40,001 bases of DNA, taken from the sequence record MT446394.1; one strand, 5' to 3'. This stretch comes from Escherichia virus TH20. Shown piece by piece: positions 3,159-40,001 of this stretch. Made by a program: the position numbers and the translations under genes. The notes under the pieces were generated by a model, which did not search any database, was not told where the DNA came from, and saw only the letters and a program-made list of their open reading frames with translations. Every line of letters starts with the position of its first letter. The first letter of the stretch is position 1.

Positions 3159-3314
3159 TTACTTGTCCTCAGAGTGTAAGCTGTCGTGTATACGCTTGCG
3201 GCCCTCATAGACCGCCTTCAGGTGACGCATAGTCGCATCATGGTTTAACTGCCCGGTCTTGACCATAATCCGGGCGTTAGCGACGTGGTGCTGGCAGAGA
3301 CCATAAGTTACCAT
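3159..3314 (-). CDS. Hypothetical early protein, 51 aa
   Basis: ATG overlaps stop of Ocr-like gene (TGATG); hand translation [51 protein letters not shown]. Confidence 0.35.
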   Translation of the reverse strand: MVTYGLCQHHVANARIMVKTGQLNHDATMRHLKAVYEGRKRIHDSLHSEDK

Positions 3315-4276: not shown

Positions 4277-4305
4277 ATTAGGCCCTAGTCTGGACCTATA
4301 GTCAA
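4277..4305 (-). promoter_or_regulatory. Candidate host sigma70 early promoter (T7 A1-like): TTGACT, 17-nt spacer, CCTAAT
   Basis: -35 at 4305-4300, weak -10 at 4282-4277; overlaps a degenerate phage-promoter-like CTATAGG element. Confidence 0.25.
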
Positions 4306-4417
4306 TAGGTAATTTGAAATAATATTGATTGAGCTATCGTCGGCCCCATGGTGTAAGAGGATATAGTCTTTGACTAACATGTCTTTGACCTTAAGTCTAT
4401 AGCCATTGTGTCTATTA

Positions 4418-7145: not shown

Positions 7146-7591
7146 TGCGTCACCTCCTTATCTTGCTGCAAGGCTCTCACAGTGTCCTGAAGGGCCTTAA
7201 TCCACTTGTCTCCTTTCACTCCGATGACGATAAGACGTTTAGCATCTCGTTCGTCAAGTTCGGCGTAACCATCAATGACGCATCGACCGTCACTTTGCGT
7301 GGTTCCACTCGTTGGTTTGACTCGGATGCGCAGCCGCTTATTGTCAGACTGAAGGTCAGCAATAATCCTATCAGTGCTGCCTTCCAGCGAGGACATTTCG
7401 TCCTGAAACCGTTTGGACACTTTGTTGACTTCATCTTGGACAGCAAGCCTTGTATCTTCCGATGCCTTAAGATTCGAGGTGTATTCTTCATTGACCTTAG
7501 CCTCCCACTTATTGTTAGCGGTGTGGTAGCCACCAGCAAACATCACTGCTGCAAGTAACCACGGAGCCGCTCTCTTTAAAAATTCGAGCAT
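7142..7591 (-). CDS. i-spanin (T7 gp18.5 / Rz-like), 149 aa
   Basis: N-terminal TM segment [14 protein letters not shown], coiled-coil body; position between small and large terminase; GGGAGGG upstream of ATG 7591. Confidence 0.85.
7216..7491 (-). CDS. o-spanin lipoprotein (T7 gp18.7 / Rz1-like) embedded out of frame in the i-spanin gene
   Basis: [25 protein letters not shown] with lipobox LTISGC aligns to remembered T7 gp18.7; start could be ATG 7491 or 7434. Confidence 0.6.
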   Translation of the reverse strand: MKNTPRILRHRKIQGLLSKMKSTKCPNGFRTKCPRWKAALIGLLLTFSLTISGCASESNQRVEPRKVTVDASLMVTPNLTNEMLNVLSSSE

Positions 7592-8255: not shown

Positions 8256-10805
8256 TTAAATGGTTGCTATTTGCCACCGTCGATCATAGTAATGGGAGAA
8301 TCCGCTATACGTCAAAGTCATATGAACAATAGCCATTGATATTGATGCTGACGGGCAGCTGACACGGATGAATGTTTGTCCGCCTCTAACTAATTTCTGC
8401 ACATTAAACCCTGACAGGCTTTTATCCCCGGCATCAAGATTACTCCATAAAGCCCCCGATGCTACGTTGGACTCGCTACTACCAGACATACTAAACATCA
8501 AACGCCCTCCAGCCTCTCTACCACCAAGTCCATTTTTGTTTACGGGTATGATTGACATTTCCCCGGCAAGGAAGCACGCACCATACCTTGATTCTTCACC
8601 GACAGTGGTTAGCAGAATGTCTACCGCTCTGTTCCACGGAAGTATGAATGTCGCCTGCTCGGTTTTTACTTCATTAAAATACGCGTCAGCTGTCACATTT
8701 ATTGACGAAAGAGTTACGCCGTCATAGGAGTTACGCCCTTCTAGTGGTGCATGGCCATATACCCTATTTCCTGCTCTGACGCTTCGGATTCTGGTGTCTG
8801 CTAATCTTGAGGCGTCAGCAGCTTTAACGAATCTGAAATTATCTCCTAAAACCAGAGAGTTACCGTAAGCATTAACGTTTCCTGACGTATTTTTGTTTAT
8901 TAAGGCAATATGGTAATCCGCCTTAACATAACCGGAGTCCAGCACAATACTTCCATTCGGCATTCTTGCCTCGCTTGTCGGCATTTCAATGAACCGAGTG
9001 ACACCAGTGTTCATTGAACTTTGAATCCAACATGACAATCCCTTAAGGGTGAACTTAAACTGGTCATCTGTTTCTGCATAATCAGAGAAATCAATACCCA
9101 CAGTGCCGTTTATGCCCTCGATACCCATGCCGTCTATTGTTACGGACCGCAACTGCCCACCTACACGATGTGGTCGTATACAACCATCAGCGGCGATATT
9201 TGACGCAGTTACATACATGACAGGGTATCCACCAGCTACCGGTTCGTACGTACTTCTGTCTATGGAATAACCCCAGAGAAAGCCATCGTCGCAGTGGTGC
9301 GCCCATATAGAATTAATGTTGGTGCTGGTATTTCCACTAAGAGCAATGCCATACTTGCAATCGTACATATAGATGTTTTCTATTGTACTGACGAAAGTAA
9401 GCGCCGGTAGCGCGAATTTATAATGATAGAACTCAACATTACGAATCGTGCACAGTTTACCACCACCACCCGATAATTCGGACCCACTTATCATCAACGG
9501 GCATCCAACATAATCTGCGTCAGCATTTCTGAAAGCAATGTTTTCAACAGAAAGGCTATGGCCCCACGAGGTACTTACGAACCCACCAGTTGTCGATGTG
9601 TATATAATGCTTTTACGGGGAGAGTCACCGATAAGGCTAAGCATTACCCCATCCCATCTATACGCGCTAATGTCAATCTGTGTGCTGCCCATATAGATTG
9701 GCTGTTCGATTAATAAAGGAATATTGTGCGCAATACTTGCGGTATACGCAGCCAGCATCGCGGCCCCGTCGTTATGGGTTCCGGAAAGGTTGGCAGCCCC
9801 CATGCTTGGCGCTTTAGGATATGGAGTACCCTGAATGGTGCTGCCGACGATATATGGAGCATCCATCCATGCGCCAAACATTTTAGGAGTAATTCCCCGA
9901 ACGTTTGATAAGTCCCTTTTCCAGCGCTTACCTCCACTAGTAATTATAACAACGCCATTATCATCATTAGTTGTGGAATCTGCTAAGTCCGCATAGAACC
10001 ACCCACCACCAGAATCACCAGACTCATTTGGTGCAATTGATGTTGTATGTTTTTCTACAAAAATGCGCTGGCCATCAACATCAGGTTCAATAGTTCTTAA
10101 TGTTGATATATCATCGCATTTGCCGATTAACTTAAATCCATCGCTTTTATTTAATTGACTCCTTAATGAAGCATCACCTACACTAACCCACGCACCTACT
10201 CCAATCCCACCGGAAGTTTCAGGAGTTGAACCAGCAGGAACGTTCTTTGGAAGAGTACCATCCCAGCGGTAATAATCACCATCCTCTTCCCATAGCAGGA
10301 CCGTGTTCCATGTTGTAACGTTGAAGCCTTTCTCGAAGGAGCGACTGGTAATATAGCCAATTCGACCAGCTTCCTTGATACTCGCAGCTATTCCTCGTGC
10401 TTCGTCCTCGCTATCCTTAGCGTTGCTAGCAGAGCTACCAGCAGCAGCGGCATATTCCTTCGCTAAGTCAACCGTTTGGTCTCGACCTTCTTCTGCAATA
10501 TGGATAGCCTGAAGCTCTGCATTGGTCAGGTCACTAGCTGTCAACACTGAGCCATTCCTGAAGTCTACCACTAAGTCAGTTCCAGTCTGACGGTGAATAC
10601 GAACGATGTCGAAACCTGATTGGTCAACCAGCATCTCAATCATCGTTGGATTAAGGAATCGGTAATCTCGACCAGCTTCCAGTACACGGTTCAGGGCAGG
10701 GTTAGAGCTATTCACCAGCGTAACAACAACAAACGTTCTGGCTAGGTAGTCGAACTCAATCCTGTACTGAGTGTTTCCTGAAGGGAATTGTGTAATCGTG
10801 GACAT
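8256..10805 (-). CDS. Tailspike: T7 gp17-like N-terminal anchor fused to a depolymerase-like beta-helix body, 849 aa
   Basis: N-terminus FDYLARTFVVVTL...VDFRNGSVLTASDL resembles T7 gp17 1-150; remainder is Gly/Ser/Thr/Asn-rich as in pectate-lyase-fold capsule depolymerases; AAGGAGG upstream. Confidence 0.9.
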   Translation of the reverse strand: MSTITQFPSGNTQYRIEFDYLARTFVVVTLVNSSNPALNRVLEAGRDYRFLNPTMIEMLVDQSGFDIVRIHRQTGTDLVVDFRNGSVLTASDLTNAELQAIHIAEEGRDQTVDLAKEYAAAAGSSASNAKDSEDEARGIAASIKEAGRIGYITSRSFEKGFNVTTWNTVLLWEEDGDYYRWDGTLPKNVPAGSTPETSGGIGVGAWVSVGDASLRSQLNKSDGFKLIGKCDDISTLRTIEPDVDGQRIFVEKHTTSIAPNESGDSGGGWFYADLADSTTNDDNGVVIITSGGKRWKRDLSNVRGITPKMFGAWMDAPYIVGSTIQGTPYPKAPSMGAANLSGTHNDGAAMLAAYTASIAHNIPLLIEQPIYMGSTQIDISAYRWDGVMLSLIGDSPRKSIIYTSTTGGFVSTSWGHSLSVENIAFRNADADYVGCPLMISGSELSGGGGKLCTIRNVEFYHYKFALPALTFVSTIENIYMYDCKYGIALSGNTSTNINSIWAHHCDDGFLWGYSIDRSTYEPVAGGYPVMYVTASNIAADGCIRPHRVGGQLRSVTIDGMGIEGINGTVGIDFSDYAETDDQFKFTLKGLSCWIQSSMNTGVTRFIEMPTSEARMPNGSIVLDSGYVKADYHIALINKNTSGNVNAYGNSLVLGDNFRFVKAADASRLADTRIRSVRAGNRVYGHAPLEGRNSYDGVTLSSINVTADAYFNEVKTEQATFILPWNRAVDILLTTVGEESRYGACFLAGEMSIIPVNKNGLGGREAGGRLMFSMSGSSESNVASGALWSNLDAGDKSLSGFNVQKLVRGGQTFIRVSCPSASISMAIVHMTLTYSGFSHYYDRRWQIATI

Positions 10806-10874: not shown

Positions 10875-13800
10875 CCTTGATGTGGATGCCTTGCTCCTCA
10901 AACGTTCCAAGCAACAGCTTCTGGGTAATTGGGTCGTTAGGAACCAGTTCACGGAACGTATTATACATCCCGGTCATGTAGTCTCGCTCGTTGACACGAG
11001 TATCAGCCTTGAGGTAGCCAGCCAAGTTGTAAGCCGAAGCACCAACGTTAGCAGCATATCCGAAAGCGGGAACCTGCTCCAAGAAGCTACCAACAACATT
11101 CATCACAGGGTCACTTGTAGCTGCACCATACGCGATGGCACGTTCAGGTTTCTCTGTAGGTGAACGAGGAAGGATAGACGAACGTAGCATCTTAGTGTCC
11201 TCATACCCAGCGATCCCGCCCAGAATGTTGGCGACACCTAGTGGTCCACCGAGATGTGAACTACGTGATAGAGCTGCATATCCAATCATCGTTGGGTCCA
11301 GAGCTTGCTTGAGGTAGTCACGGTCTCGACCATCCTGCATAGCGTAAGCCTTGACATGCACCTGAGCCATGTAGTAGATACCAGCAAGACCCATAGAGAT
11401 CACAGTGGACAGAGCGGCGTCCATCGCTCGGTTGTTCTTCGTGGCGTTATAGAAGGTTCGCATGGTACGTCCATTGATGGACTTGATGACGAAGTTCTTA
11501 AACTGAAGGACAGTCTTAGCGAGAGGACCATAAGCCTTGGCGTCCATGTTTGACAGCTTGTGGGGCCGGAGTAACGTTTCGTCAGCGATGGTGTCACCCA
11601 TACGCCACAGGTCCATAGCCCTTGGGTCCTGACTGAACGCCTTCTTATCCTTGATGGTATACTTCCCGTCTGGACCACGAGTCACTGACTCACGGATTAA
11701 TGACTTAATGCCCTTCCACTGCTCGTCGGAGATACCAGCGGTCTTAAGCCAGCGGTCATCGAACTTACGCTTACTACCAGTCAGGCTATGCTCAACGATG
11801 TCAGACAGGAAGCCTTGACGTCCAGCATCTAACAGGTAGTTGGTCGTACCATTGAGGACTTTAGTGAACGGAGAGCGTACTGCAAGTTCACCAGTGTAAT
11901 ACTTAGCAGTCCCCAGAGCTGTAGCTGTACCACGACCGAGGTCACTGTAAGACCGCAGACGGTCAATGACGTCCTGTTTAGACGGGCGGATTGAGTCATC
12001 AAGTTCCTTACCGAAGAGAACATTGTGAAGGTCCTTAATCTCTGAGGCTCCGACCTTCTTGTTACGGAAGGCTAGGTCACGGAACATCGGGACTCCATGA
12101 AGCATTGCACGAACGTTACCGCGAGCCAGCATACCACCAATCTCCGTTAAGTTCTGAACACCCATGTAGGCATTCTTAGCGAAGAACGATAGGTCTGTCA
12201 TTGTGCGCATCACGGTAGCGAAGGCTGCATCGTCAGCACCATCACGTCGAGCACGACCAGTGAGAATCTTCAAGGTGTCACGTAAGGTCGAGACCTCACC
12301 TTTCAACTTACCGTCATCACCAGCCTTGTTCATCATGGTCTCAACCAAGTCCTTCATTTCCTTCGTGGTCTTGCCTGTACCAGCCATGATAGCAATGTCA
12401 CCATTAACTCGACGGTTGTAGGCCGGGACAATCTTGTCCATGTCCCACTCACGCAGGTTGTTGACACTGAAGGTCTGCCCATTAGGTAGGACGATTGACA
12501 TATCGCTATCGAACAGGTTACGAGCCTCAAGGAAGCTGTTGTTCTCCAGACCAACCAGACCGCTGATGTTCTCTTCCATTACGGATGAACGTTCGAACTG
12601 CTCGGTGTGGGAGATACCGTAAGCCTTATCGTTGGCGTACTTATCTACCGCAGCAGCAAGTCCCTCTGGAGTCAACGTAGGGTCAGCCTCTAAGAGTGCC
12701 TCGTCCACGCGTTTCTTGACTTCAGGTCTGGACGCATAGCTGGTCAACCATGACTTCTTGATGGCCTCCTGCAACGCCTCTTGACTCCCAAGCTCCTTGA
12801 TGTACAGCTCCTTCATCTGTTTGCTATACACGTGAGGGACGTAGGTTCCCTTGAAGCGGCTACCCGGAAAGATAGACTGAGCGTCTGGCCGACCAAACAT
12901 AGCTGGGTTCTCCATCATCTCACGCTTGGCGTCAAACTGGTTCTTCAGTAGGTCATAGACTTTCAGTTCTCCCGGAGTCAGTTCAGCCTTCAGGTTTCCG
13001 CTACCATCTTCGATAGCCATAGACACGCGCTGGTAGATGTCCTGACGGAATGCTCCAGAGTCTCGCCAGAATGCTGTCTGGAAGTACGGGTCCTTTAGTG
13101 CCTCAGTAACCGCATCGTCGATGTCGTTGTAGAACCGATGGTCCACAGCACGAAGTCTCTCGAACACGTCTGACGATGTTGTCCCGATTTTACCTGAGGC
13201 CCCAGACTGCATACCAGTAGGTGAACGCACTAAGTCAGCAGCTACTCCACGAATCTCAGGGTTCTCAGACCGAAGCAGCTTCAGGCCAATCTCGGTAAGT
13301 CCACCAAGGTTCACACCAGCAGCGGCACGTTCCGGCTCAATCACTTCGTCAAAGACTTGACGTGTCTTAGGGTTCAGAGGGTTCTCACCAATCAGGATTG
13401 AACCGTCTTCTAATCGTACACTTCCCGGCTCATTCGGAACGTCAGCGAACTTAACGCCTTGATGACTAAAGGTCTGCTCACCTTCCTGAATAGGGAGACG
13501 AGACAGGTCCTGACCAACAACGTTACGAGCGGTCTCACGAGCTTCCAGACGTGTAGCTGGACCAGCAAACTCGTTGGTTGACTTGCCTAGGGCCTTGCCG
13601 ATAGCGTCCCCGATAGCTGTCATTCCCCCACCGAAGAGAGCACCGCCCATAATTGCCTCAGCCACGTGAGCGTCCCCACCAGCAACTGAGGTTCGAGCAA
13701 TCTCGGATGCCCCAGCCAGAGCACCAGACTGAGCAGCCACAGTGAACATCTTGTTGACTAGCTTCCCACCTTTACCTACCTGCCAAGCAATAGGAACGTA

Positions 13801-17055: not shown

Positions 17056-17643
17056 TTAGCTATGACCTGTAGGTGTGCCTTTAGCAGCACTAATTGGTGC
17101 AGCACCACCAGAGCTGGACGCTCCAGCGATTGACTTACCAGCGGCGTAGCCTTGCATCCCGGCGTTAGCAACATTAAGTGCATGAGCCAGTGGGCTGGTC
17201 TTGATGATTTTACCTTGACCACGGATAGCAGACTTGGTGTTCTCAATGTTGGCGATACGGTTCCCAAATATAGCCGCATAGTCACGGTTGTAGCTTTCGG
17301 TAATCCCTGCTCGCTCCTTGACCGTATCTCCTTCGACCTGACGTTCAATCCTGTCCATAGAGTTACCTTCCAGACCGGACTCAGCCACCGCAGCTCTGAC
17401 CATACCCTGATTGCGGATACCGTTTAGCGTGGTCTCTGTCAGTTCAGCCATCTGCTGCTCCTTCAGGTCTCGCTCCTGCATCTTCAGGTTGGCGTCAGAG
17501 TAGTTCATCTGCTTAATCATCTCCTGAGACTGACGGTTCTGAGCATCAATTGCTGCACCTTCGGCCTTGGCCTGCTGGGATGCGGACATAGTGGCCCCGG
17601 CTACAGCCATGATCCCTAGACCGATGGATACTGGTTCACACAT
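17056..17643 (-). CDS. Internal virion protein (T7 gp14-like), 195 aa
   Basis: GNSMDRIERQVEGD...YNRDYAAIFG resembles remembered T7 gp14; GGAGGT upstream. Confidence 0.85.
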   Translation of the reverse strand: MCEPVSIGLGIMAVAGATMSASQQAKAEGAAIDAQNRQSQEMIKQMNYSDANLKMQERDLKEQQMAELTETTLNGIRNQGMVRAAVAESGLEGNSMDRIERQVEGDTVKERAGITESYNRDYAAIFGNRIANIENTKSAIRGQGKIIKTSPLAHALNVANAGMQGYAAGKSIAGASSSGGAAPISAAKGTPTGHS

Positions 17644-18037
17644 GGTTCACCTCCAGATAGTTGATAGCGTTTCTAAGCAACTGGACGTCATCCTTCAGCT
17701 TGCCTATAGCTTGATTGCAGTTGGTACATAGCAGCCCTCTAACCTTTCCAGTTGAATGGCAATGGTCTACCGCTAGTCTTCCTACAGACTCTGTACCATG
17801 ACAAATAGCACATGTTCCACCTTGCTCACGAAGCATTTTATCATACTCCTCAGGTGTTATTCCGTATCCTTTCTTCAGGTTATACCTCCTGTTGTGCTCT
17901 GGGGTTCTATCCTTCCGTATCTTGGACCAACAGCTTCTGCAATGAGGCTTGCGCCTGTTCGGGTCTTTCTTGGTGGCCTGTTTGTGAAACTCAGTGATTG
18001 GTTTCTCCAGACCACAAGTTAAACAAACCTTGGTCAT
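17636..18037 (-). CDS. HNH endonuclease (endonuclease VII-like), free-standing, between genes 13 and 14
   Basis: CAICH...LAVDHCHSTGKVRGLLCTNCNQAIG; likely start ATG 18037 (AAGGAG upstream); track start 18100 is GTG inside gene 13. Confidence 0.8.
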   Translation of the reverse strand: MTKVCLTCGLEKPITEFHKQATKKDPNRRKPHCRSCWSKIRKDRTPEHNRRYNLKKGYGITPEEYDKMLREQGGTCAICHGTESVGRLAVDHCHSTGKVRGLLCTNCNQAIGKLKDDVQLLRNAINYLEVNHV

Positions 18038-18039
18038 CT

Positions 18040-18495
18040 TTACTCCTTGGTGATTGTGAATAGAATGAATACTTCTCCAGTCACTGGACTTCTGGTCCAC
18101 TTATCGTCGTGGAACTTAGCGCCTATTGACTTGAGAAACCGGATGTGGGACGCATTGCCTTCCCAGACGTAGTTCCATAGTACCGGATAGTCCTCCAGCA
18201 TCTTGTCACGATACTCCATGATTCTCTCACGGAACTCTCGCTTACCTTTAGGTGGGAGACGCTCGGTCATTCTGGTTGTCAGGAACCAAACGTTGTCACC
18301 TTGGTTGCCGCCATAGGCGTAAATATCCCCAGTAGCGTTAGTTAAAACCACAGATGAAGACGTTAGGTGTGCTTGCAGCCTTTCAGTGAGACCCTCAGTG
18401 GTCCCGTAGTTGGCTTTACACTCCTCTAAGTCGTCATCTGTAAGTTGTGCAGCAGCGTGCCAAACGTCTACATCTGTAGCCTTGCGAATATACAT
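18040..18495 (-). CDS. Virion assembly / internal protein at the gene 13 position, 151 aa
   Basis: Assigned by position downstream of the phi13-type promoter; no motif recognised. Confidence 0.5.
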   Translation of the reverse strand: MYIRKATDVDVWHAAAQLTDDDLEECKANYGTTEGLTERLQAHLTSSSVVLTNATGDIYAYGGNQGDNVWFLTTRMTERLPPKGKREFRERIMEYRDKMLEDYPVLWNYVWEGNASHIRFLKSIGAKFHDDKWTRSPVTGEVFILFTITKE

Positions 18496-28726: not shown

Positions 28727-28992
28727 TAGTGACACTCCTTCTTAACAAGTTTGCGCTCGCGGTTCGTCTTAATGACGTGTTCGCGCTTTGGAATACACTG
28801 TAGGTGCTCTATGTTGCAGCACCCACGGTTCAAGCACAAATGGTCTATCTCATAGCCATCTGGTATAGGCCCACGCTTCTGCTTCCACACCCATCGGTGG
28901 AACATGAAGGCGAACTTGTTGCCCTTCCTGTAGCTTCCCATGGGTGTGGAAGCGTAGGGTCTGGGTTCGAGGGTCAATGACACTCTTTCCAC
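28726..28992 (-). CDS. HNH endonuclease, free-standing, after the DNA polymerase gene
   Basis: GYEIDHLCLNRGCCNIEHLQCIPKREH; start uncertain (GTG 28992 inside DNAP end, or ATG 28941). Confidence 0.7.
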   Translation of the reverse strand: MERVSLTLEPRPYASTPMGSYRKGNKFAFMFHRWVWKQKRGPIPDGYEIDHLCLNRGCCNIEHLQCIPKREHVIKTNRERKLVKKECH

Positions 28993-31145
28993 GTTGGTCC
29001 AATCTTACCCTCCGTATCAAGTTCACACTTGAAGTTATAGAAGCGTCCGACCTCACGCATCGCCTCTTGAGCAATACGGACGACATCTTCTGCTATCTCC
29101 TGAGTACGACACGCTATCTGCAATTCATCGTGAATCCAAGCCATTAGCGCAAAGTCTCCGTCCCATCCGTTACCGTAACCAGCCTCTTCAAGTTTCTTCT
29201 CAGTAAGTACCATCCAGTGCTTACAGACTACCGCACCATCACCCTGAAGTAATGCGTTCAGTGCTGAGTGTGGAGACCGTATGTGGATACGGCGACCGTC
29301 AAGTCCACGCAACCAACGGCGTTTCCACTTAACGATGTTCTCTCCGTCCACCCACTTAGAGTCTGATATTAACGTATTACTCACAGCTTCCCTGAGGTCC
29401 TTGATGGCTGGTGTGCCCTCAATGAATTTCTTCATGAGAGCTGAACCTTCCTTCTTACCACCGCCGACTATCAGTCCAATCTTAGCGGCCCCTGCACCAT
29501 ACAGGAACGCATAGATGAACGTCTTAGCGTTGTTACGGAAAGCATCATGGTCGTGGTTCGACTTATCGCGTGGGACGTTAGGTGCTAACCCAGCGTTTAC
29601 TGCGTTGGCCCAGTGGATGTCACCTTCGACCACAGTCTTCGCATATGCACCACCATCAAACGGAGCCGCTCGGTTCCCCAGACAACGAAGCTCAAGACCT
29701 GAGGCATCCACACCTACTTGAATCCAAGGGTCTGGCTTACCGTCCTTCTTGTTCCACGCTGCACCGAAAGCACCACGGCAAGTCTCACCATACGGAGCAC
29801 CGTTAGCAGGGACCTGAGCCATGTTTGGTGAACTATGAGTCGCACGTCCGGTTACTGCCCCGCATGGGTTGATTGAACCGTGCATACGTCCGTCTGGACC
29901 TACAAGTTTCAACCATGCGTTCTTACCTTCAGCAGCCTGCCCGATTCTCTTCTGGACTACCAGATACTCACGGACCAGCTCTACGCAAGCCTGAGCCTCT
30001 GCGTCTGGTAACTTAACGTGTTCTAACGTCTCGTCATCGACTACAGGTTTCCCAGTGTCAGTGAAGTCCACAGGCTCCCATCCACGCTCTATCAGGACTT
30101 TCGCTAAGTGGTCGCCGCTTCCCGGATTAAACTCAACGTAAGTGATGGGCGTGAATGGTGCCCCCTCCATCGTGTCTCGTGAGTCGAACTCGCAAGGCTC
30201 CAGACCTAAGCGTTGTGCTTTGTTCTTCGGTTTCTTAAAGATGCCACCGACCTTAGGATACACGACTCGCGGATACTTCGGAAGGTCCTTACCTGTCCGT
30301 GGATGCCTGAAGAACTCCTTGCCTCCCTTTGGTGCATACCAGCTACCGAAAGTCGAGCGCAGCTTGTCCAGCAACTCCGCACGTTTGACAGTGAGTTCAC
30401 GATATAAGCCTTCGACCATCTCGGTGTTCATCGGATAGCCGTTACGTTCCATCTTCGCACAGGTCCACGCAGCATCATGTTCCAGACGCAACGCATAAAT
30501 CTGTTCGAAAGCGAACTGTTCAGACTGGAAGTAATACTTGTCAGTCAGGAACTTCTTGAACAACGCCAGTGTGACCACAACGTCTTGAACGTTATAGTCC
30601 AGCATCTCCTGAGATGGGAACAACCATTCGTCCCCAGCCTTATATTCGATACCCTCGGCCTTGCACTTGGCAACGTAATCATGTTTGTACTCACCCTTCA
30701 TCTCACCGAGACGATAACCCCAAGCCTCAAGAGACTGACGTCCCATCATCTTAGGTGGCAGACGACCCGCTTTCACCGCGCCCATGTCTGAGAACTTAAT
30801 GTTTGGATACATCAAGCGGCCCAGCACCAAGGTATCAATCATCTTGTGTTTCGGGAAGTTAAAACGTTTCCCAAAGTACAGACGCTTCAGCTTGTCTATA
30901 GCCGGGACGTCATAGTTGATACCATTATGGAAGACAAGCATACCATCAGGTGATGCGGCAATCTCTTCCACCTTCTGCACATACTCTTTGAAGCCACCGA
31001 CGATACCGACCATCGGAGCTACCCCATACTTAAGGGTCTCATTCGACTCGGCATTAATCAGGACCCCACAGTGAAACTGGGACACGGTGTCAAGGAGACC
31101 GTTGGTCTCGATGTCCGAACCCCAAATATCCTTAAGGTCAAACAT
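28974..31145 (-). CDS. DNA polymerase (T7 gp5-like), 723 aa
   Basis: Co-linear with T7 gp5 end to end; real start ATG 31145 (GGAGGA 6 nt upstream); track start 31181 is GTG inside the stem-loop. Confidence 0.97.
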   Translation of the reverse strand: MFDLKDIWGSDIETNGLLDTVSQFHCGVLINAESNETLKYGVAPMVGIVGGFKEYVQKVEEIAASPDGMLVFHNGINYDVPAIDKLKRLYFGKRFNFPKHKMIDTLVLGRLMYPNIKFSDMGAVKAGRLPPKMMGRQSLEAWGYRLGEMKGEYKHDYVAKCKAEGIEYKAGDEWLFPSQEMLDYNVQDVVVTLALFKKFLTDKYYFQSEQFAFEQIYALRLEHDAAWTCAKMERNGYPMNTEMVEGLYRELTVKRAELLDKLRSTFGSWYAPKGGKEFFRHPRTGKDLPKYPRVVYPKVGGIFKKPKNKAQRLGLEPCEFDSRDTMEGAPFTPITYVEFNPGSGDHLAKVLIERGWEPVDFTDTGKPVVDDETLEHVKLPDAEAQACVELVREYLVVQKRIGQAAEGKNAWLKLVGPDGRMHGSINPCGAVTGRATHSSPNMAQVPANGAPYGETCRGAFGAAWNKKDGKPDPWIQVGVDASGLELRCLGNRAAPFDGGAYAKTVVEGDIHWANAVNAGLAPNVPRDKSNHDHDAFRNNAKTFIYAFLYGAGAAKIGLIVGGGKKEGSALMKKFIEGTPAIKDLREAVSNTLISDSKWVDGENIVKWKRRWLRGLDGRRIHIRSPHSALNALLQGDGAVVCKHWMVLTEKKLEEAGYGNGWDGDFALMAWIHDELQIACRTQEIAEDVVRIAQEAMREVGRFYNFKCELDTEGKIGPTWKECH

Positions 31146-31160
31146 GGTTAATCCTCCGTT

Positions 31161-31205
31161 TAGTCTAATCATAAAGGCCACTCGATGTGAATGACCTTGA
31201 GTCTA
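31161..31205 (-). promoter_or_regulatory. Conserved stem-loop, candidate RNase III site upstream of DNA polymerase gene
   Basis: Second copy of AATCATAAAGGCCAC...ATGACCTTGAGTCTA. Confidence 0.4.
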
Positions 31206-31208: not shown

Positions 31209-33088
<1,880 letters not shown>

Positions 33089-33136
33089 TCACTCCTTAAT
33101 CACAAATGCGAACAAAGGGACAGGACTCGCGGGTCC

Positions 33137-33159
33137 CATCCCTAAGGTGATAGTTTAGG
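33137..33159 (-). promoter_or_regulatory. Phage-promoter-like site with altered melting region (CACCTTAGGG instead of CACTATAGGG) upstream of primase-helicase gene
   Basis: Upstream half CCTAAACTATCAC is consensus; -4/-3 changed; function uncertain. Confidence 0.35.
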
Positions 33160-33370
33160 CTTTGAAGAACTGAGACAACTGGTCAGCTTTGGTGTCAGCC
33201 TGACGTGCCTTCATGCCAGCTTCCAGTGACGCGATGGTCAGCTTGTCAGCCAGAGCAGCAGCATCAGCCGCACCGTCAGCAGTCTTCTCTGCTACCTTTC
33301 GTTCCATAACCGCAGCACGACGATAACCACGCACCACCAGACGACCAAGAAATTCGATAAGTTTAATCAT
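33155..33370 (-). CDS. Hypothetical small Ala-rich protein, 71 aa
   Basis: ATG 33370 with AAGGAGA upstream; pattern MxKLIxxLGxLxVRxY...QLSxFF resembles a small T7 protein I cannot place reliably. Confidence 0.5.
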   Translation of the reverse strand: MIKLIEFLGRLVVRGYRRAAVMERKVAEKTADGAADAAALADKLTIASLEAGMKARQADTKADQLSQFFKA

Positions 33371-33393
33371 TTAGTGTTCTCCTTTAGAGTTTA

Positions 33394-33852
33394 TTAACCG
33401 CGGTCGGAAGTGACTAGTCCGTTGGTAGACAGCCAGCGCTGTAAGTCGAAACTTGGACACGCCTTTGGTGCTACGTCATGATGTGCTTTGATTTCTGCCT
33501 GAGGATACAGGACCTTCAGGTCAGCCAGCTTGTTGCGCAGGGAGTTCATCTGGGCTGGAGTGAAGTTAGCTTCAAACTTGCCCTTAGCGTCAATTCCACC
33601 TACAAGGCAGACGCCTACGGACCAGGAGTTCCAATCCTTAACGTGTGACCCTACGACATTGACCGGGCGACCCTCTTCCACAGTACCATCGCGCTTGATG
33701 ATAAAGTGGTAGCCTACGTCCAGCCATCCTTGCTGCTTGTGCCACATGCGGATGGTCTCTACCCCAATGTCCATCTCTGGCTTGGTAGCCGAACAGTGAA
33801 CGAAGATAGCGTCAGTTCGGGACCGTGGTTTGAACTGAACCTTACTTACCAT
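33394..33852 (-). CDS. N-acetylmuramoyl-L-alanine amidase / T7 lysozyme (gp3.5-like), 152 aa
   Basis: TDAIFVHCSATKP, HKQQGWLDVGYHFIIKRDGTVE, HHDVAPKACPSFDL, LVTSDRG match T7 gp3.5. Confidence 0.95.
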   Translation of the reverse strand: MVSKVQFKPRSRTDAIFVHCSATKPEMDIGVETIRMWHKQQGWLDVGYHFIIKRDGTVEEGRPVNVVGSHVKDWNSWSVGVCLVGGIDAKGKFEANFTPAQMNSLRNKLADLKVLYPQAEIKAHHDVAPKACPSFDLQRWLSTNGLVTSDRG

Positions 33853-34151
33853 TGTACACCACCAGCTCTACTACGACCAGATTCAGATGTGACAGGAGGG
33901 ACGCTTGATGCTGGCAGGACTTGAGGTTTATCCTCTACAATTTCCTCAAGATATTCATTTAAAACCCATGCTCCCCACATTCCGTCAGGCTGCGTGTTAG
34001 GACCCGCGCTACCGTGCTTGTAGTAGCCACGCTCGGAGGATTCTACCAGAGTAATGCCAAGCCGGGTTGATGGGTCTTTCACACATTTCGTAACGATAGT
34101 ACTTTTAGGCCACCCGTGGCGGCTAACTTTAAGTTTATATTTCTGAGTCAT
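33846..34151 (-). CDS. Hypothetical protein, 101 aa, inserted between endonuclease I and lysozyme genes
   Basis: ATG 34151 overlaps endonuclease I stop (ATGA), AAGGAG upstream; no T7 counterpart recalled; C-terminal half low complexity. Confidence 0.5.
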   Translation of the reverse strand: MTQKYKLKVSRHGWPKSTIVTKCVKDPSTRLGITLVESSERGYYKHGSAGPNTQPDGMWGAWVLNEYLEEIVEDKPQVLPASSVPPVTSESGRSRAGGVQW

Positions 34152-34603
34152 CACTTAACTCCTTTCTTCTTTGGAATGAGTATACCCGAAGGCAGACGTA
34201 CAGTCGCCTCTCGAAGCCACTCAACCGGGATGAACTTATCGGCATACTTATAGCCGTTCTTTTCGCACCATGCGCCATACGTGGTCGGAGACCCTTTGTA
34301 TAGCTTGGAGCGGGAACTTGAGAACACGAACCGGATGTCTAACTCTGGGTGCTGTTCTCGTACCAGAAGATGCTTCTTACGGTCATCACTATCGAAGATA
34401 CCTTTGGTCTCCACGATGATACCGTTAGGAAGGATAAAGTCCGGCGTGTAGAAGTGGTCCGAAGCAGGAACAACGTACCCAATCTTATATGCTTCATACT
34501 CTGCCTTGACTCCGTTCTTCTCGAGCCACTCTTGGTTCTTTGCTTCCAGTCCAGAGCGGTAAGTCCCGACTGCGTGTCCTCGTGATGCTGACCACTTAGC
34601 CAT
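34151..34603 (-). CDS. Endonuclease I, Holliday junction resolvase (T7 gp3-like), 150 aa
   Basis: FRSGLE, YTPDFxLPNGIxVETKG, SDDRKKHLLxREQHPELDIRxVFSSSRxKLYKGSPT match T7 gp3; real start ATG 34603 (GGAG upstream); track start is TTG. Confidence 0.9.
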   Translation of the reverse strand: MAKWSASRGHAVGTYRSGLEAKNQEWLEKNGVKAEYEAYKIGYVVPASDHFYTPDFILPNGIIVETKGIFDSDDRKKHLLVREQHPELDIRFVFSSSRSKLYKGSPTTYGAWCEKNGYKYADKFIPVEWLREATVRLPSGILIPKKKGVK

Positions 34604-35036
34604 GTTTGATTCTCCATATAATTGCTTGCGGAGTAACACCAAACATCTTGGCTAAATCTACAGGCTTCATATCAGACTTCAGGATAAACTCTACGTCTTC
34701 CTCGGTCAGCTTAGTCTTCTGGTTAGCTTCTCCTTTGAACACTGGCGGTTTCGAATGACGACCCCGCTTCACGCAATCCTGCATGTTGTCTGTCTGAGTC
34801 CCGACTTCAAGATGTTCCGGGTTACAGCAGCAAGGGTTGTCACATTTATGGCGAACTAGGAGGCCATCAGGTATTGGACCACAGTGCTCTCTATAAGAGA
34901 CTCTATGCGCGTAGTCCTGTTTCTGGTTGCCTATGGATATTCTACCATAACCTTGTTTGTACCGGGAGCGTTGCCACTCCCAGCAGCCAGAAGGAGAAAC
35001 TATAGAGTAAGCCTCCAGTTTCTCTTTCAGTGTCAT
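34596..35036 (-). CDS. HNH homing-endonuclease-like protein, free-standing, between SSB and endonuclease I genes
   Basis: HRVSYREHCGPIPDGLLVRHKCDNPCCCNPEHLEVGTQTDN; ATG overlaps SSB stop (TAATG). Confidence 0.8.
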   Translation of the reverse strand: MTLKEKLEAYSIVSPSGCWEWQRSRYKQGYGRISIGNQKQDYAHRVSYREHCGPIPDGLLVRHKCDNPCCCNPEHLEVGTQTDNMQDCVKRGRHSKPPVFKGEANQKTKLTEEDVEFILKSDMKPVDLAKMFGVTPQAIIWRIKHG

Positions 35037-35734
35037 TAGAAGTTGTAGTCACCGGCGTTGTTCTGACCATCGTCCTGACCATCATCGTCAGACCCGAAGT
35101 CATCACCGCCGAAGTCACCATCGGTTGACGCTTTGTAGCCAGTACCGAGGTCTTCATCATCACCCCAGCCACCATCGCCACCAGCACCATCACCTTTCCA
35201 CTCCTTCAGCTCTACCAGAAGGCAGGACTCAAGCTGGAGCTTAACGCTTGCACCAGTCGCAGCGTTCCACTTAAACGGCAGGACTTTAAACTTGACCTTC
35301 AGCTTAGACCCAGCGCCAATATTCGGGACGTCACGGATGAGTTTAGCATCAGTGTCGTAGAACCGTAATACGATAGGCTCGGACTTGCCGTCTTTCAGGT
35401 AAGACGCAAAGCATTTAAACTTAAGGGTAACAGTACCGTCACCATTCTCAATCCACGGCATATCGCCTTCACGCGGCTCGATAGGCTTCTTGCCACGCTG
35501 AACCTGAGGTGGGTTCTTCTCGTGGTCTGCGAGTGCTTTCGCATACGCATCGTCGTGAATCTTCTGTAAGACATCAATCATCTTACGGACCTTCGGGTCA
35601 TCCAGACTGAAAGTCAGGTTAACCTTATGCTCACCACGCTCATTAAACTTGGTGTCTGCTTTGTTCAGCCATGCATAAGGCTCAACGATACCAGCTACCG
35701 GAGTGGTGAAAGTCTTCAGTTGCTCTTTAGCCAT
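35036..35734 (-). CDS. Single-stranded DNA-binding protein (T7 gp2.5-like), 232 aa
   Basis: PPxVxRGKKPxxPxEGDMP, NGDGT.T.KFKC.AS, GASVKLQLES..LVEL and acidic tail ending in F match T7 gp2.5. Confidence 0.9.
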   Translation of the reverse strand: MAKEQLKTFTTPVAGIVEPYAWLNKADTKFNERGEHKVNLTFSLDDPKVRKMIDVLQKIHDDAYAKALADHEKNPPQVQRGKKPIEPREGDMPWIENGDGTVTLKFKCFASYLKDGKSEPIVLRFYDTDAKLIRDVPNIGAGSKLKVKFKVLPFKWNAATGASVKLQLESCLLVELKEWKGDGAGGDGGWGDDEDLGTGYKASTDGDFGGDDFGSDDDGQDDGQNNAGDYNF

Positions 35735-35773
35735 CGGTGTAAATCTCCTAATTTAAAGTTACGAACTGGACGT

Positions 35774-35796
35774 CTGTCCTACAGTGATAGTTTAGG
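35774..35796 (-). promoter_or_regulatory. Phage-promoter-like site with CACTGTAGGA core (phi2.5 position)
   Basis: Upstream half consensus; -3 A to G; overlaps stop of gp2-like gene. Confidence 0.5.
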
Positions 35797-35950
35797 TCTC
35801 AGGACGAATCCGTCCGACCACAAACCCAGCGTCCTCATACTCTTGGGACTTCAGGGTAGCCTCTTCAAGAGACTTTGCGTACACCGGAACATCGAAGGAC
35901 TGAATGCGCCCCTCAAGCTCCACGATGTATTTCTTCTCAACCTCAGTCAT
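35792..35950 (-). CDS. Host RNA polymerase inhibitor (T7 Gp2-like), 52 aa
   Basis: Hand translation; [14 protein letters not shown]...[13 protein letters not shown] parallels T7 Gp2 SFEVPIYAETLDEA...YVPAGFEVTRVRP; AAGGAG upstream; below track cutoff. Confidence 0.75.
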
Positions 35951-36028
35951 AGACCGCGCTCCTTCCATTGGTTGTATAACGTAATGTAGTCCGGGTTGAG
36001 AGTCTTCTCATACATCTCCCGGCACCAC

Positions 36029-36367
36029 TCACTCGGCAGCATAGCACTTACCTTTATGCAAGTCGAACAGCTTCTGATAGAAGGATGCTTTGTTCAGGTC
36101 CTTCTCCATAGTAGCCAGTTCGGACTTCTTACCAGCCCGGAGTCGATACTTCAGGACGTTGCCAAGGCAGAACCCACGGAACTCACTCACAGTCATTGAC
36201 CGTGCAATAATCTCAATGGATTCCACGCTATCAAAGACCTGATAGTGGGACGGCTTGCGGACGTCATCAATTTCTTGTAGTTTGTTACCTACAAGTTTAC
36301 CAACGTGCGGGAATCGGTCGTCACCATTACATGCTTCACAGTATGTGGTGCTATCACAGTATGTCAT
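36029..36367 (-). CDS. DUF3310-type protein, possibly T7 gp1.7-like nucleotide kinase family, 112 aa
   Basis: PSHYQ...SIEII...F.LGNVLKYRLRAGKK...EKDLNKA.FY pattern; N-terminal Cys cluster; family assignment from memory. Confidence 0.45.
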   Translation of the reverse strand: MTYCDSTTYCEACNGDDRFPHVGKLVGNKLQEIDDVRKPSHYQVFDSVESIEIIARSMTVSEFRGFCLGNVLKYRLRAGKKSELATMEKDLNKASFYQKLFDLHKGKCYAAE

Positions 36368-36621
36368 CAGAGCGCCTCCTTAATTACCAGAAGTGCCAGC
36401 TTAATGCGAGGCCATTTTGTAATGACCACAGGCACATCAACTTGTTCTTTATCCATAGCCTTCAGCATAGACTTGCGGGTGACTAGCGCATGAACTGCTG
36501 GAGACAGAGCCACTGTCTTACCAAAGCGGGGTAATGGTTGATTAGCTTTATGGAAGCTGAATGGGCTATGCGACAGGTGGAAGCTTCGAGTAAATCGGTT
36601 GAACATTAAGTTTTTAGACAT
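36367..36621 (-). CDS. Hypothetical protein (gene 1.6 region), 84 aa
   Basis: ATG 36621 with AAGGAGA upstream, first ORF after a phage promoter. Confidence 0.45.
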   Translation of the reverse strand: MSKNLMFNRFTRSFHLSHSPFSFHKANQPLPRFGKTVALSPAVHALVTRKSMLKAMDKEQVDVPVVITKWPRIKLALLVIKEAL

Positions 36622-36647
36622 AAGGTTTCTCCTTTGGTCGGTTAGGG

Positions 36648-36670
36648 TTGTCCTATAGTGATAGCTTAGG
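36648..36670 (-). promoter_or_regulatory. Phage-RNAP promoter (phi1.5/1.6 position): CCTAAGCTATCACTATAGGACAA
   Basis: One mismatch upstream of core; +1 G at 36653. Confidence 0.6.
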
Positions 36671-36729
36671 GTCTAGCTGGTGGCCCAGACGCAAAGAAAC
36701 CCAGCAGTCCTAAGACCACTGGGTTGACG

Positions 36730-36909
36730 TTAACGCATCTTAAAGTTGTTCACCTTAGCAGCCTTACGGTAGCGATGACTCATGGTTGATATTGTCTCTT
36801 CATCGAAGTAGGGCTTGGCCCACTTCTTGAGTTTACGATACCACAGCTCGCCATTTACCACAGCGTAGAGTTGACCACTTGCTATGTTGATATAAAGTTG
36901 TGTACTCAT
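36730..36909 (-). CDS. Hypothetical small protein after ligase, 59 aa
   Basis: ATG 36909 overlaps ligase stop (ATGA); track start 36948 is GTG inside ligase. Confidence 0.4.
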   Translation of the reverse strand: MSTQLYINIASGQLYAVVNGELWYRKLKKWAKPYFDEETISTMSHRYRKAAKVNNFKMR

Positions 36910-37988
36910 GACTTCACCGTTGGGTTGTCTTCGGTTCCACGCCAGCACTTGAAGCTGGGGTGACGAAGGGAGCCATCAGGGAACCGCTCCATGAAGAGGA
37001 CTTCACACTGCCAGCCTTCGTATGGGTTATCGAAGCAAGGTTCGTTACCACCAATGCCGTACGGCGCAAAGATGCCAACCGCAGCAAGCGTGTCCTCCTT
37101 GACCTTAGCCGTAAACTCGTCCTTCTGTTCTTCAGTCAGACCGCAGGCGTTGACCACCATGCCATCCTCCAGTAGAACCTCAAAGCCGATGACCTTACCT
37201 TCGTTAGCCTTACCCTGAGTCCCCCACACGAGGCCACACACGGTCCCGTCGATTGTCTCCTCAGGCTTCATTTTCCACATGCCTGACTTCTTGCCACGCT
37301 TCCACTTACCCAGCGGGTCTTTGACTATCAGACCCTCGTGTCCTTCCAGACGCTTCTCTTCGTACAGGGAGTTGAGCGACTCAAGGTCATAGACCGTGTG
37401 TGACTCAGACAGAACCCAGTCGATTTCCGGGAAGTATTTCTGGAGGAGAGGGACGATAGCTTCGGCCTTCAGGCGTGTGACGCTATGGATAGGACCTTCT
37501 GCTTTCGGGTCGGCTATGGTCGTCATGTCGACGACACCGTAGACCACAACCTGAAGTCGGGACCGGGCGACCCAGAACGGGACCTTCTTGCCACGGCCCT
37601 GATAGCATTCAGCGAACGCCTCGTTGTTAGGCTTCAGCCACTTCGTTCGGATGAGACCTGAGGAGGTGTTGAAGTCCACACCTTTGACCATTACCTCGCC
37701 ATCAATCATCAAGCCCACGCCTTCGTAGCCAGCTTGACGAAGGAACCATCGCCAGTCAGCTTGGGTCCACGCATTCCCTAACTCAGAGTTCATCCACTCC
37801 AAGGCTGGAAGAGGTTTAGACTCACGGCTCAGCCAATAGGTCTCACCTTCACGCAGGACCGGGAGGTTCAACCGGACACCATCGTACTTCACTTCAGCTT
37901 CCAGAGACCCGGCTGCTTCCAGTGCCTTCTTAACACCAGACTCAGAGTAATCTACAGCGCGGTGCGGGTTGGTTTTGATAGTTGTCAT
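36906..37988 (-). CDS. ATP-dependent DNA ligase (T7 gp1.3-like), 360 aa
   Basis: IKTNP, adenylation motif KYDGVR, EGLIVKDP, KRGKKSGxWKMKPE, GSLRHPSF match T7 ligase; preferred start ATG 37988 overlapping gp1.2 stop (TAATG). Confidence 0.95.
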   Translation of the reverse strand: MTTIKTNPHRAVDYSESGVKKALEAAGSLEAEVKYDGVRLNLPVLREGETYWLSRESKPLPALEWMNSELGNAWTQADWRWFLRQAGYEGVGLMIDGEVMVKGVDFNTSSGLIRTKWLKPNNEAFAECYQGRGKKVPFWVARSRLQVVVYGVVDMTTIADPKAEGPIHSVTRLKAEAIVPLLQKYFPEIDWVLSESHTVYDLESLNSLYEEKRLEGHEGLIVKDPLGKWKRGKKSGMWKMKPEETIDGTVCGLVWGTQGKANEGKVIGFEVLLEDGMVVNACGLTEEQKDEFTAKVKEDTLAAVGIFAPYGIGGNEPCFDNPYEGWQCEVLFMERFPDGSLRHPSFKCWRGTEDNPTVKS

Positions 37989-38251
37989 TATGCTTTGCTC
38001 CATGTGTCGATATGGTCAGCGAGACCGTTGAGGTAGTCTGTTGCAGTATTATACAGCACGTCTTCATCGTAGTGTGCGAAGGTCTCAAGCGCGAAGATGT
38101 TACCAGCTCGGTCCTCCACCCTGAGTTTCATGCACTCTTGGCACGACACATGGTCTTGAAACTCCTGAGATATAACAGCGAAGTCTAACTGATAAAGCCT
38201 GTTACACGCTGCTTTGAAAGCGTTGAGGTTGCCACTATAAAGTCGGCCCAT
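37988..38251 (-). CDS. dGTP triphosphohydrolase inhibitor (T7 gp1.2-like), 87 aa
   Basis: MGRLYSGNLxAFKAA.N.L.QLD.AVI and HxDEDVL.N..TD.LN match T7 gp1.2. Confidence 0.85.
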   Translation of the reverse strand: MGRLYSGNLNAFKAACNRLYQLDFAVISQEFQDHVSCQECMKLRVEDRAGNIFALETFAHYDEDVLYNTATDYLNGLADHIDTWSKA

Positions 38252-38828: not shown

Positions 38829-40001
38829 TTAAGCGAATGCAAAGTCTGAAGACAAGATGTCTTCGATATTCAGTTTACCTTTCTTCGGAAGCTCTGGCAA
38901 CTTATCGCGCTGGCTCTCATGAAGCTGGTATTCAAACTGCTCATAGAAGTCAAGCAGCACATCGTTGTCTCGGTAGGTCTCGACCATCGTCTCACGGACA
39001 CCACGGAACAGATACTCAGCGTCAGCCGGGATGGTCCCGAAGCTATCATGAATCACTGCGAATGACATCACGTCATACTTGCGATGAGTGTGGACTACAG
39101 TCTTGCGTAGGTGGCTACCATCTTGTGAGTGGACGAAGTTCGGGCTAATGCCTGACTCCTGCTTGTGCTTGTCCAGCTCTTTCTTCGTGCCTTTGTTGAC
39201 GGTAGGCTGAAGGTTGAATGACCCTAAGAACATCAGGTTCAGACGAGTGGTATCCTTCTTGCGGTATTCCTGCCAGACCGGGAAACCATCAGGTGTGACC
39301 CAGTGTACCGGAAGGCAAGGCTTCAGGATTTCACCCGTCTTCTTGTCCTTCACTTCAGCAGCCAGCAGCTTGGCAGCACCTTGAAGCCACTTCATAGCGT
39401 CTACCGCAGCAACTACGGTCACGCTCACAGCTTCCCAAATCATCTTAGCCATGAATCGGGACGCTTGGCTTGGCTCGGTGAACATAGCTCCAGACCCTGC
39501 GTCAATTGCGGGCATCACGATGTCCTCGTAAACTTGGTCTGCGAAGCCGTACTCTTTCGACCCGTAGGCCAGAGTCATGACTGAGCGCTTAGTAACCTTG
39601 CGTGACATACCGTAAGTCAGCCACTGCCGGGCCAGCTCTCGTGTCCCCAGCTTGAGACGTTCGGTAATCTCACCAGTTTTCTTGTCCTCGTGAGTTACCA
39701 TCTCGTTGTCCGTGCCGTTAACCAACAGGACTTTAAGCTCCTCCTCAATGCGGTCAGACACGATGCGGTAGATGTCTTGGACCTTACCGGAAGGCGTCAG
39801 GTTTACTGCATGTCCACCGATGTGATCACGAAGCATCGCGCTGAAGTGCTGAATCCCAGAGCAGGACCCATCGAAAGCTATCGGCAGCGAGCAGGAGTAA
39901 GACAAACCGTGGTGCATTACGCCAGCATACTCGAAGCAGAACGCTAGGAAGCAGAACGGAGAGTCTAACTTACCCCACCACTCAATGCTGTCCATCGGTG
40001 C
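38829..40001 (-). CDS. T7-type RNA polymerase (gene 1), C-terminal 390 codons plus stop; the part above 39194 duplicates 1-807
   Basis: Translation ends ...DILSSDFAFA as T7 RNAP; contains HQESGI.PNFVHSQDGSHLR and IHDSFGT active-site region; stop at 38829. Confidence 0.95.
   Translation of the reverse strand, partial: APMDSIEWWGKLDSPFCFLAFCFEYAGVMHHGLSYSCSLPIAFDGSCSGIQHFSAMLRDHIGGHAVNLTPSGKVQDIYRIVSDRIEEELKVLLVNGTDNEMVTHEDKKTGEITERLKLGTRELARQWLTYGMSRKVTKRSVMTLAYGSKEYGFADQVYEDIVMPAIDAGSGAMFTEPSQASRFMAKMIWEAVSVTVVAAVDAMKWLQGAAKLLAAEVKDKKTGEILKPCLPVHWVTPDGFPVWQEYRKKDTTRLNLMFLGSFNLQPTVNKGTKKELDKHKQESGISPNFVHSQDGSHLRKTVVHTHRKYDVMSFAVIHDSFGTIPADAEYLFRGVRETMVETYRDNDVLLDFYEQFEYQLHESQRDKLPELPKKGKLNIEDILSSDFAFA
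39195..40001. repeat. Window-end duplication, copy 2 (same sequence as 1-807)
   Basis: See copy 1. Confidence 0.9.

Follow-up and report, generated by a model that had tools for sequence, protein, structure and literature searches.

The window analyzed here is a stretch of 40,001 nucleotides (nt) from Escherichia virus TH20 (sequence record MT446394.1). Between its genes for a gp2.5-type single-stranded DNA-binding protein (SSB) and for endonuclease I (the product of gene 3, a Holliday-junction resolvase) lies a minus-strand open reading frame (ORF) encoding a 146-residue protein with an HNH motif (Table 1). A sequence-only reading of the same DNA had placed a free-standing HNH homing-endonuclease-like gene between these two neighbors, at 34596-35036, and the ORF is indeed found there.

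The TAA stop codon of the SSB gene and the ATG of the HNH gene have one base in common (TAATG), bearing out the coupling to the SSB stop that had been proposed from the letters. At its other end the HNH gene overlaps gene 3 by 8 nt (ATGGCTAA, with the gene 3 ATG at 34603), and a GGAGA run within its 3′ end, 7 nt upstream of this ATG, is a plausible Shine-Dalgarno sequence for endonuclease I. Since the 3′ end of the HNH gene thus supplies both the Shine-Dalgarno sequence and the start codon of gene 3, both neighbors have been left intact by the insertion.

The 20-nt phage promoter consensus CTAAACTATCACTATAGGGA is matched ten times, with zero matches expected by chance. One copy, the equivalent of phi2.5, lies just 5′ of the SSB gene, and the next (33139-33158) is ahead of the primase/helicase gene. 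A simple consensus scan of positions 33000-37000 for sigma-70-like and terminator-like sites gave no excess over shuffled sequence. With the nearest phage promoters at these two positions, and no excess from the scan, the HNH gene has no promoter of its own, nor was a terminator found for it; it rides on the transcript that runs from the SSB gene to gene 3.5, begun at the phi2.5-type promoter.

Table 1. Features of the HNH locus, followed by other features of the window (positions are those of the whole stretch).
Feature	Position	Strand	Basis or remarks
HNH endonuclease ORF, T7 gene 2.8 homologue	34596..35036	minus	ATG to TAA, 146 residues; stop codon included
gp2.5-type SSB gene	35036..35734	minus	PF21265, E 6.9e-73
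Endonuclease I gene (gene 3, Holliday-junction resolvase)	34151..34603	minus	PF05367, E 1.5e-77
Putative Shine-Dalgarno sequence GGAGA for gene 3, inside HNH 3′ end	34611..34615	minus	sequence; function presumed
Phage RNA polymerase promoter, phi2.5 equivalent, for SSB-HNH-gene 3 unit	35776..35795	minus	match to CTAAACTATCACTATAGGGA
Segment missing from HNH-less relatives, 433 bp	34604..35036	minus	alignment of window and Penshu1 with 101136BS1 and K1F; junction listing for 12 kayfunaviruses
HNH motif HKCDNPCCCNPEHL, residues 63-76	34809..34850	minus	six-frame motif scan
HNH_3 catalytic core, residues 42-86	34779..34913	minus	Pfam coordinates, AlphaFold2 secondary structure, conservation
C-terminal three-helix, helix-turn-helix domain, residues 109-145; presumed sequence-specific DNA-binding module	34602..34712	minus	
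Diverged start of gene 3, linked to the HNH gene; presumably co-converted, and presumed site of the altered, immune target	34420..34603	minus	identity drop against relatives
Divergent SSB 3′ end (acidic tail), specific to window allele	35037..35134	minus	identity drop against relatives
Second HNH_3 gene, 88 residues	28726-28992	minus	Pfam, E 3.2e-19
Endonuclease_7-domain gene, 154 residues, gp13.5-like, between gp13 and gp14 genes	17636-18100	minus	Pfam, E 3.3e-28
ocr	3314-3823	minus	
RNA polymerase fragment (window ends inside gene)	38829-39995	minus	

The Pfam HNH_3 profile (PF13392) matches residues 42-86 over positions 2-46 of its 46, scoring 56.9 bits where the gathering cut-off is 24.8 (E 1.6e-15), which puts the HNH motif noticed in the sequence-only reading (HKCDNPCCCNPEHL) far beyond chance. 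PHROG endonuclease families 1872, 59, and 6254 are also matched, with E-values down to 7e-36, and a protein search returned 119 homologues (E-values down to 1.6e-98), the top one 99% identical. A sequence search of the PDB gave only marginal matches, to I-HmuI (E 0.49) and to a repressor helix-turn-helix (HTH; E 1), so that a useful comparison called for a predicted structure.

An AlphaFold2 model built from 58 homologues has a mean predicted local distance difference test score (pLDDT) of 89.5. It consists of an N-terminal helix and antiparallel sheet; a predicted beta-beta-alpha-metal topology, with a strand at residues 60-63 ending in His63, a second strand at 76-79, and a helix at 81-90 containing Asn84; a linker at 91-110 predicted to be flexible (pLDDT about 70); and a C-terminal bundle of three helices (112-120, 125-132, and 136-145) that matches HTH DNA-binding domains. 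The helix-rich C-terminal tail remarked on earlier is thus, in the model, an HTH-like three-helix bundle. The best structural match of the whole is I-HmuI, and the fold also matches I-PpoI. C18, H63, C65, C70, and H75 are invariant across the 58 homologues, and D66, N67, N72, and N84 are at least 90% conserved; this Cys/His set is compatible with a structural zinc site and an intact catalytic center.

Among eight orthologues, the ratio of nonsynonymous to synonymous substitution rates (dN/dS) is 0.06-0.22 (about 0.15) in 26 of 28 pairs. The other two are PE3-1/pO91, so nearly identical that the value of 0.54 comes from almost no substitutions, and one saturated pair that gave no estimate. Ratios this low indicate that the protein is under purifying selection, and is not a decaying relic. 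Degeneration after fixation is nonetheless the fate expected of homing-endonuclease genes, and one related phage, ZG49 (discussed below), demonstrates that loss does occur. A relic, surviving as a passenger ORF or as a catalytically dead DNA-binding protein, might also seem to be recorded in the GenBank entry for PE3-1 (KJ748011.1), which annotates only a 198-nt coding sequence as a “putative HNH endonuclease.” However, the PE3-1 locus holds an intact orthologous ORF of 149 codons; the short coding sequence is therefore an annotation artefact, which rules it out as a case of decay. The window ORF is itself full length, with every one of the conserved family positions in place and a confident structural model, and in view of the selection on it the relic explanation is most improbable.

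Relatives without the gene lack a segment of 433 bp, whose boundary is ambiguous by 3 nt because ATG is found at both ends. In K1F, 101136BS1, yong1, BUCT788, and CR44b the SSB stop and the gene 3 start are fused as TAATG; in ST31, whose gene 3 has a GTG start, the fused junction is TAGTG. When a 210-nt probe spanning the empty junction was used as query, 208 of 222 related phage records matched it without interruption, and in a search with a 2.2-kb query the HNH part was covered in only 7 of 220 matching phage records. Going by these database matches, the gene is absent from about 94% of related genomes.

The sequence-only reading had proposed just this comparison, presence or absence in close relatives, as its check, and had named as counterevidence a gene conserved at this position in all relatives and bearing no insertion signature. 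That is not the situation here, since the junction is uninterrupted in most relatives and T3 lacks the gene. The family occurs sporadically in the SSB/gene 3 slot across five Studiervirinae genera: Kayfunavirus (Penshu1, PE3-1/JSS1, pO91, and TM1, in addition to the window), Berlinvirus (PP74), Przondovirus (K42PH8), Teetrevirus (the Citrobacter phage SH1), and Teseptimavirus (T7 itself). Teetrevirus includes both states, T3 having a fused gene 2.5/gene 3 junction and SH1 having the HNH gene. The locus therefore has the form typical of a homing-endonuclease gene, a presence/absence polymorphism at one fixed position with precise boundaries.

The same distribution bears on a quite different idea, that this is a conserved core or packaging-associated HNH protein, like the terminase partner of HK97-like phages, and not a mobile gene. 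Terminase-adjacent HNH proteins do have such a role in some siphophages (PMC8861465). The window gene, however, belongs to the DNA-metabolism unit and is separated by about 27 kb from the gene for the large terminase (5382-7145). Directly upstream of the latter is an Rz-like lysis gene and not an HNH gene of the HK97 gp74 kind, and most relatives do without the window gene altogether. T7-like phages, moreover, package concatemers with direct terminal repeats and use no HNH partner. A packaging role is so improbable as to be hardly worth entertaining.

Several comparisons suggest that the gene has moved. Between the window and the Berlinvirus PP74, amino acid identity is 76.8% for the HNH protein, as against 45.9% for SSB and 62.9% for endonuclease I, while within Kayfunavirus the HNH protein (76-90%) is more diverged than SSB (93-94%). 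A metagenomic contig, L017 (Logan SRR10822048), comes from a clearly different kayfunavirus. Its identity to the window reaches 97-100% in just one stretch of about 1.5 kb, roughly 35900-34400, in which the HNH gene is 100% identical; the adjacent genes are 45-85% identical, and the region otherwise 45-95%. In both PP74 and this contig, then, similarity of the gene is decoupled from similarity of the genome, as expected after horizontal transfer.

Loss is recorded in Escherichia phage ZG49, which has no HNH gene. Its gene 3 opens with 15 TM1-type HNH codons (MKLKEKLEAYSEVSP), fused in frame to endonuclease I, giving an N-terminally extended protein of 168 residues. The fusion, at coding-strand positions 2465-2971 of the locus, is the scar of a deletion of roughly 390 nt, by which the HNH cassette was lost.

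While most of the SSB gene is 92-100% identical between the window and its relatives, identity falls to 52-75% against all database relatives over its last ~100 nt (35134-35037); the divergent tail is common (~95%) only to the window and contig L017. On the other side, identity to relatives is 58-83% over the ~180 nt with which gene 3 begins (34603-34420), and is back at 97-98% from about 34418. Joined into a 288-nt probe, the two window flanks are only ~75-76% identical to the best-matching HNH-less records, and reach 80% or more at the best place in just 12 of 222 matching records; in this database, therefore, the foreign-looking flanks go with the HNH gene.

The two flanks differ in how general they are. 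The divergent SSB tail is particular to the window allele and contig L017, but the divergent tract on the gene 3 side was seen in every HNH-bearing genome examined. Between five kayfunaviruses with the gene and six without it, the start of gene 3 is 63-71% identical; within the groups, identity is 97-100% among the six without and 65-82% among the five with. The Teetrevirus pair shows the same asymmetry, SH1 and T3 being 90-100% identical in the SSB gene up to the junction, 60-78% in gene 3, and again 92-93% in the lysozyme gene. Such an asymmetry is what would be expected if a break falls on the gene 3 side of the insertion point and is repaired by copying the cassette along with the stretch of gene 3 in between. 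The polymorphism is linked to the gene, and the endonuclease was presumably its cause. The gene 3 start, apparently 100% conserved in the six HNH-less genomes, was also considered as a sign of some special constraint, and this idea was rejected, as a wider search showed a spread of identities (99% or more in 63 records, 95-99% in 84, and 90-95% in 59).

The diverged SSB segment encodes the acidic C-terminal tail of the protein (…DDFGSDDDGQDDGQNNAGDYNF), which is unlike that of every GenBank relative. In T7, the phage polymerase and helicase make contact with gp2.5 at this tail, and a tail swap might for this reason have functional consequences.

The ORF shows every feature by which a free-standing homing-endonuclease gene can be recognized computationally. 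Taken together, the sequence comparisons and the structural model make it probable that this is such a gene, a member of the T7 gp2.8/gp7.7 family that has inserted as a selfish element at the gene 2.5/gene 3 junction, with a homing target most likely in the 5′ part of gene 3. Expression of the enzyme would be low, depending on reinitiation after the abundant SSB. In a mixed infection, as a monomer, it would bind an asymmetric site in the HNH-less allele through its HTH domain and N-terminal sheet, the site most probably lying in the initial ~180 nt of gene 3 or spanning the junction. Its beta-beta-alpha-metal site, with His63 as general base and Asn84 as metal ligand, would then nick or cut the target, and T7-type recombinational repair on the HNH-bearing template would copy the cassette plus neighboring gene 3 sequence. 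The carrier would be immune through its split junction and its gene 3 polymorphisms, and the cassette could be lost again by deletion, as in the ZG49 scar.

Some points weigh against this interpretation. A literature search found no published cleavage, nicking, or homing assay for T7 gp2.8 or for the family that occupies this slot, and the target site is placed only from the positions of the divergent tracts; the tract in gene 3 could stem from ordinary mosaic recombination and not from conversion initiated by an endonuclease. In the active site, the residue aligned with I-HmuI Asp74 is Arg62, so metal ligation is not identical to that in I-HmuI. Finally, the HNH alleles within Kayfunavirus are old, with synonymous divergence (dS) of 0.47-1.1 between them. 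The gene may thus be passed on vertically over long spans of time. Purely selfish cycling has no need of such persistence, which may point to a benefit.

A benefit to the phage is indeed the alternative with most to recommend it: the gene might be kept not for homing, or not only for homing, but to cut co-infecting HNH-less relatives (interference competition, or marker exclusion) or to blunt a host defense that senses DNA breaks (an effect reported of other homing endonucleases in phages), possibly even without catalysis. Consistent purifying selection and the old allele lineages are both in keeping with this, and interference competition has been documented for an intron-encoded endonuclease of phage PhiPA3 (PMC11620839). 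A recent preprint (bioRxiv 10.1101/2025.09.07.674715), in which T7 genes 2.8, 7.7, and 3.8 are treated as the three homing endonucleases of that phage, reports that a mutant without all three is outcompeted by the wild type in the presence of the GAPS4 defense, and that catalytically dead gp3.8 attenuates GAPS4. This deletion mutant was the only experimental work on T7 gene 2.8 that the literature search yielded, and in it 2.8 was removed only together with 7.7 and 3.8, not alone. Nothing in the window ties the HNH gene to a defense system, about 94% of related kayfunaviruses manage without it, and ZG49 shows that it can be lost by deletion. Retention for such a benefit is a much less probable explanation than homing, and since it is compatible with homing the two need not be exclusive.

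It is tempting, if considerably more speculative than homing as such, to connect these threads: an endonuclease of the gp2.8 family, aimed at the 5′ ~180 nt of gene 3 and homing repeatedly, could be dragging segments of that gene across the five Studiervirinae genera, as the main driver of endonuclease I mosaicism, possibly while also conferring an advantage over HNH-less co-infecting kayfunaviruses or over break-sensing defenses. This is put forward tentatively, as a possibility; if it is true, a gp2.8-type gene would be a maintained weapon and not a pure parasite.

By its sequence the window is a Kayfunavirus, K1F-like and of the T7 family; over 25 kb it shares about 93-94% identity with such phages as vB_EcoP-101136BS1. 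As no GenBank phage exceeds about 94% identity over this length, it probably represents an undescribed Kayfunavirus species. All its genes lie on the minus strand, in an order that is a circular permutation of the standard T7-type map.

The sequence-only reading had counted three HNH genes in this genome. Two of them stand, both with HNH_3 domains: the gene discussed here and a shorter one (Table 1). The third nuclease gene is of the Endonuclease VII type and not HNH_3. The second HNH_3 gene is placed much like T7 gene 5.3, directly after the gene for DNA polymerase (28974-31181), and its product is 43% identical to that of the gene at the SSB/gene 3 junction over a 47-residue core; the region is variable, with only 9 of 141 related records matching over at least 80% of its length. 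Nucleotide matches to the whole length of the Endonuclease_7-type gene are confined to 7 of 220 records, with EcoDS1 the best (97.7%); the gene is probably another mobile nuclease cassette. All three nuclease genes are thus variable among relatives, which supports the picture of a mosaic genome drawn in the sequence-only reading. A regular-expression search gave further HNH-like candidates at 7469-7525, 38030-38074, 4303-4350, and 12385-12450, which were discarded as false when the family hidden Markov model found only the two HNH_3 genes; the ORF around 7142-7591, which holds the first of these candidates, is by Pfam the Rz-like lysis gene.

Just beyond endonuclease I, gene 3.2 (33846-34154, minus strand) is truncated. 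Residues 1-88 match the 156-residue gp3.2 of ST31, after which there is a frameshifting internal deletion; the conserved C-terminal sequence HLNLVVVELVVYNGK is found in a different frame, immediately ahead of the start of the amidase gene. The version of gene 3.2 in Penshu1, pO91, and contig L017 is a different one, encoding 74 residues.

The HNH gene is not a novelty in kind: it is a homologue of T7 gene 2.8, and its slot is already occupied in T7. What is new to GenBank phages is the allele, whose best match there is that of Penshu1. By itself the finding changes little, free-standing HNH homing-endonuclease genes being a well-known source of mosaicism in T7-like phages. Within this genome, the cassette marks a recombination boundary and accounts for the foreign-looking end of the SSB gene and start of gene 3. 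It also allows a definite prediction for a family in which, apparently, no cleavage site has yet been mapped (a literature search found no site for T7 gp2.8 or gp7.7): the target should lie in the initial ~180 nt of gene 3 of kayfunaviruses that lack the HNH gene. The ZG49 scar, together with the alleles with and without HNH, makes up a compact natural series of gain, maintenance, and loss that could be used to test homing in T7-type phages.

Among known systems, the closest is T7 gp2.8 (NP_041971.1). A tblastn search aligned residues 3-139 of the window protein (94% of the query) to T7 9864-10232 with 40.6% identity (E 3e-23), and a full-length alignment of the two proteins, which takes in both the HNH core and the C-terminal HTH domain, gives 45% identity; the T7 paralogue gp7.7 is about 42% identical. 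T7 gene 2.8 (9857-10276 in the reference genome NC_001604) occupies the same slot, following gene 2.5 (which ends at 9856) and overlapping gene 3 (which starts at 10257), so that both full-length homology and location place the window gene in the gp2.8/gp7.7 family. The T7 protein differs in having 139 residues, a GTG start, and a few residues fewer in the N-terminal sheet and the linker, and its gene overlaps gene 3 by 20 nt as opposed to 8. Several GenBank relatives annotate the orthologue as an HNH or homing endonuclease, and one record labels it “Gp2.8/Gp7.7 contains HNH endonuclease motif.”

The cassettes found in the same slot of other phages (Penshu1, PE3-1/JSS1, pO91, TM1, PP74, K42PH8, and SH1) encode proteins 62-90% identical to that of the window. 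All are intact, and all are accompanied by a diverged 5′ end of gene 3; the diverged SSB tail is not found with them, but only in the window and contig L017. They vary in their overlap with gene 3 (8 to 37 nt) and in the SSB junction, which may be TAATG, TAAATG, or a 3-nt spacer. The window allele is distinct from them all, its best GenBank match (Penshu1) being 87% identical in nucleotides and 89.7% in amino acids; 99% amino acid identity is reached only with a metagenomic protein.

I-HmuI, from the Bacillus phage SPO1, is an intron-encoded, strand-specific nickase, and I-HmuI-type enzymes nick. Its structure (PDB 1u3e) follows the same plan as the model of the window protein, with an N-terminal antiparallel sheet, a beta-beta-alpha-metal core, and a C-terminal helical module, so that the similarity extends over both the nuclease and the DNA-binding parts. 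The sequence match is weak (about 23-24% identity), but aligns the catalytic His; beside it, the window protein has Arg62 in place of the I-HmuI Asp. The window protein is also Cys-rich, and its invariant C18, C65, C70, and H75 suggest a structural zinc site more like those of I-PpoI-type His-Me fingers. The genes differ in their setting as well: that of I-HmuI lies in an intron, whereas the window gene stands free, flanked by complete genes, its start and stop codons overlapping the SSB stop and the gene 3 start, respectively. No gene is interrupted, as one hosting a self-splicing group I intron would be. The window protein would therefore work like I-HmuI, but outside the intron-encoded class.

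In its setting the gene resembles the free-standing endonucleases SegG and MobE of T4 and F-CphI of cyanophages (MobE and F-CphI are characterized in PMC2790892 and PMC6083498, respectively). These belong to other families or subfamilies (Seg proteins are GIY-YIG enzymes, and F-CphI has an Endonuclease VII motif), and their cleavage sites and homing have been measured, while those of the window gene are deduced from its flanks. Like it, however, they are sporadically distributed intergenic insertions beside a conserved DNA-metabolism gene, with co-converted flanking polymorphisms on the side presumed to be cut, and nuclease genes located at recombination boundaries are a described pattern (PMC10448857).

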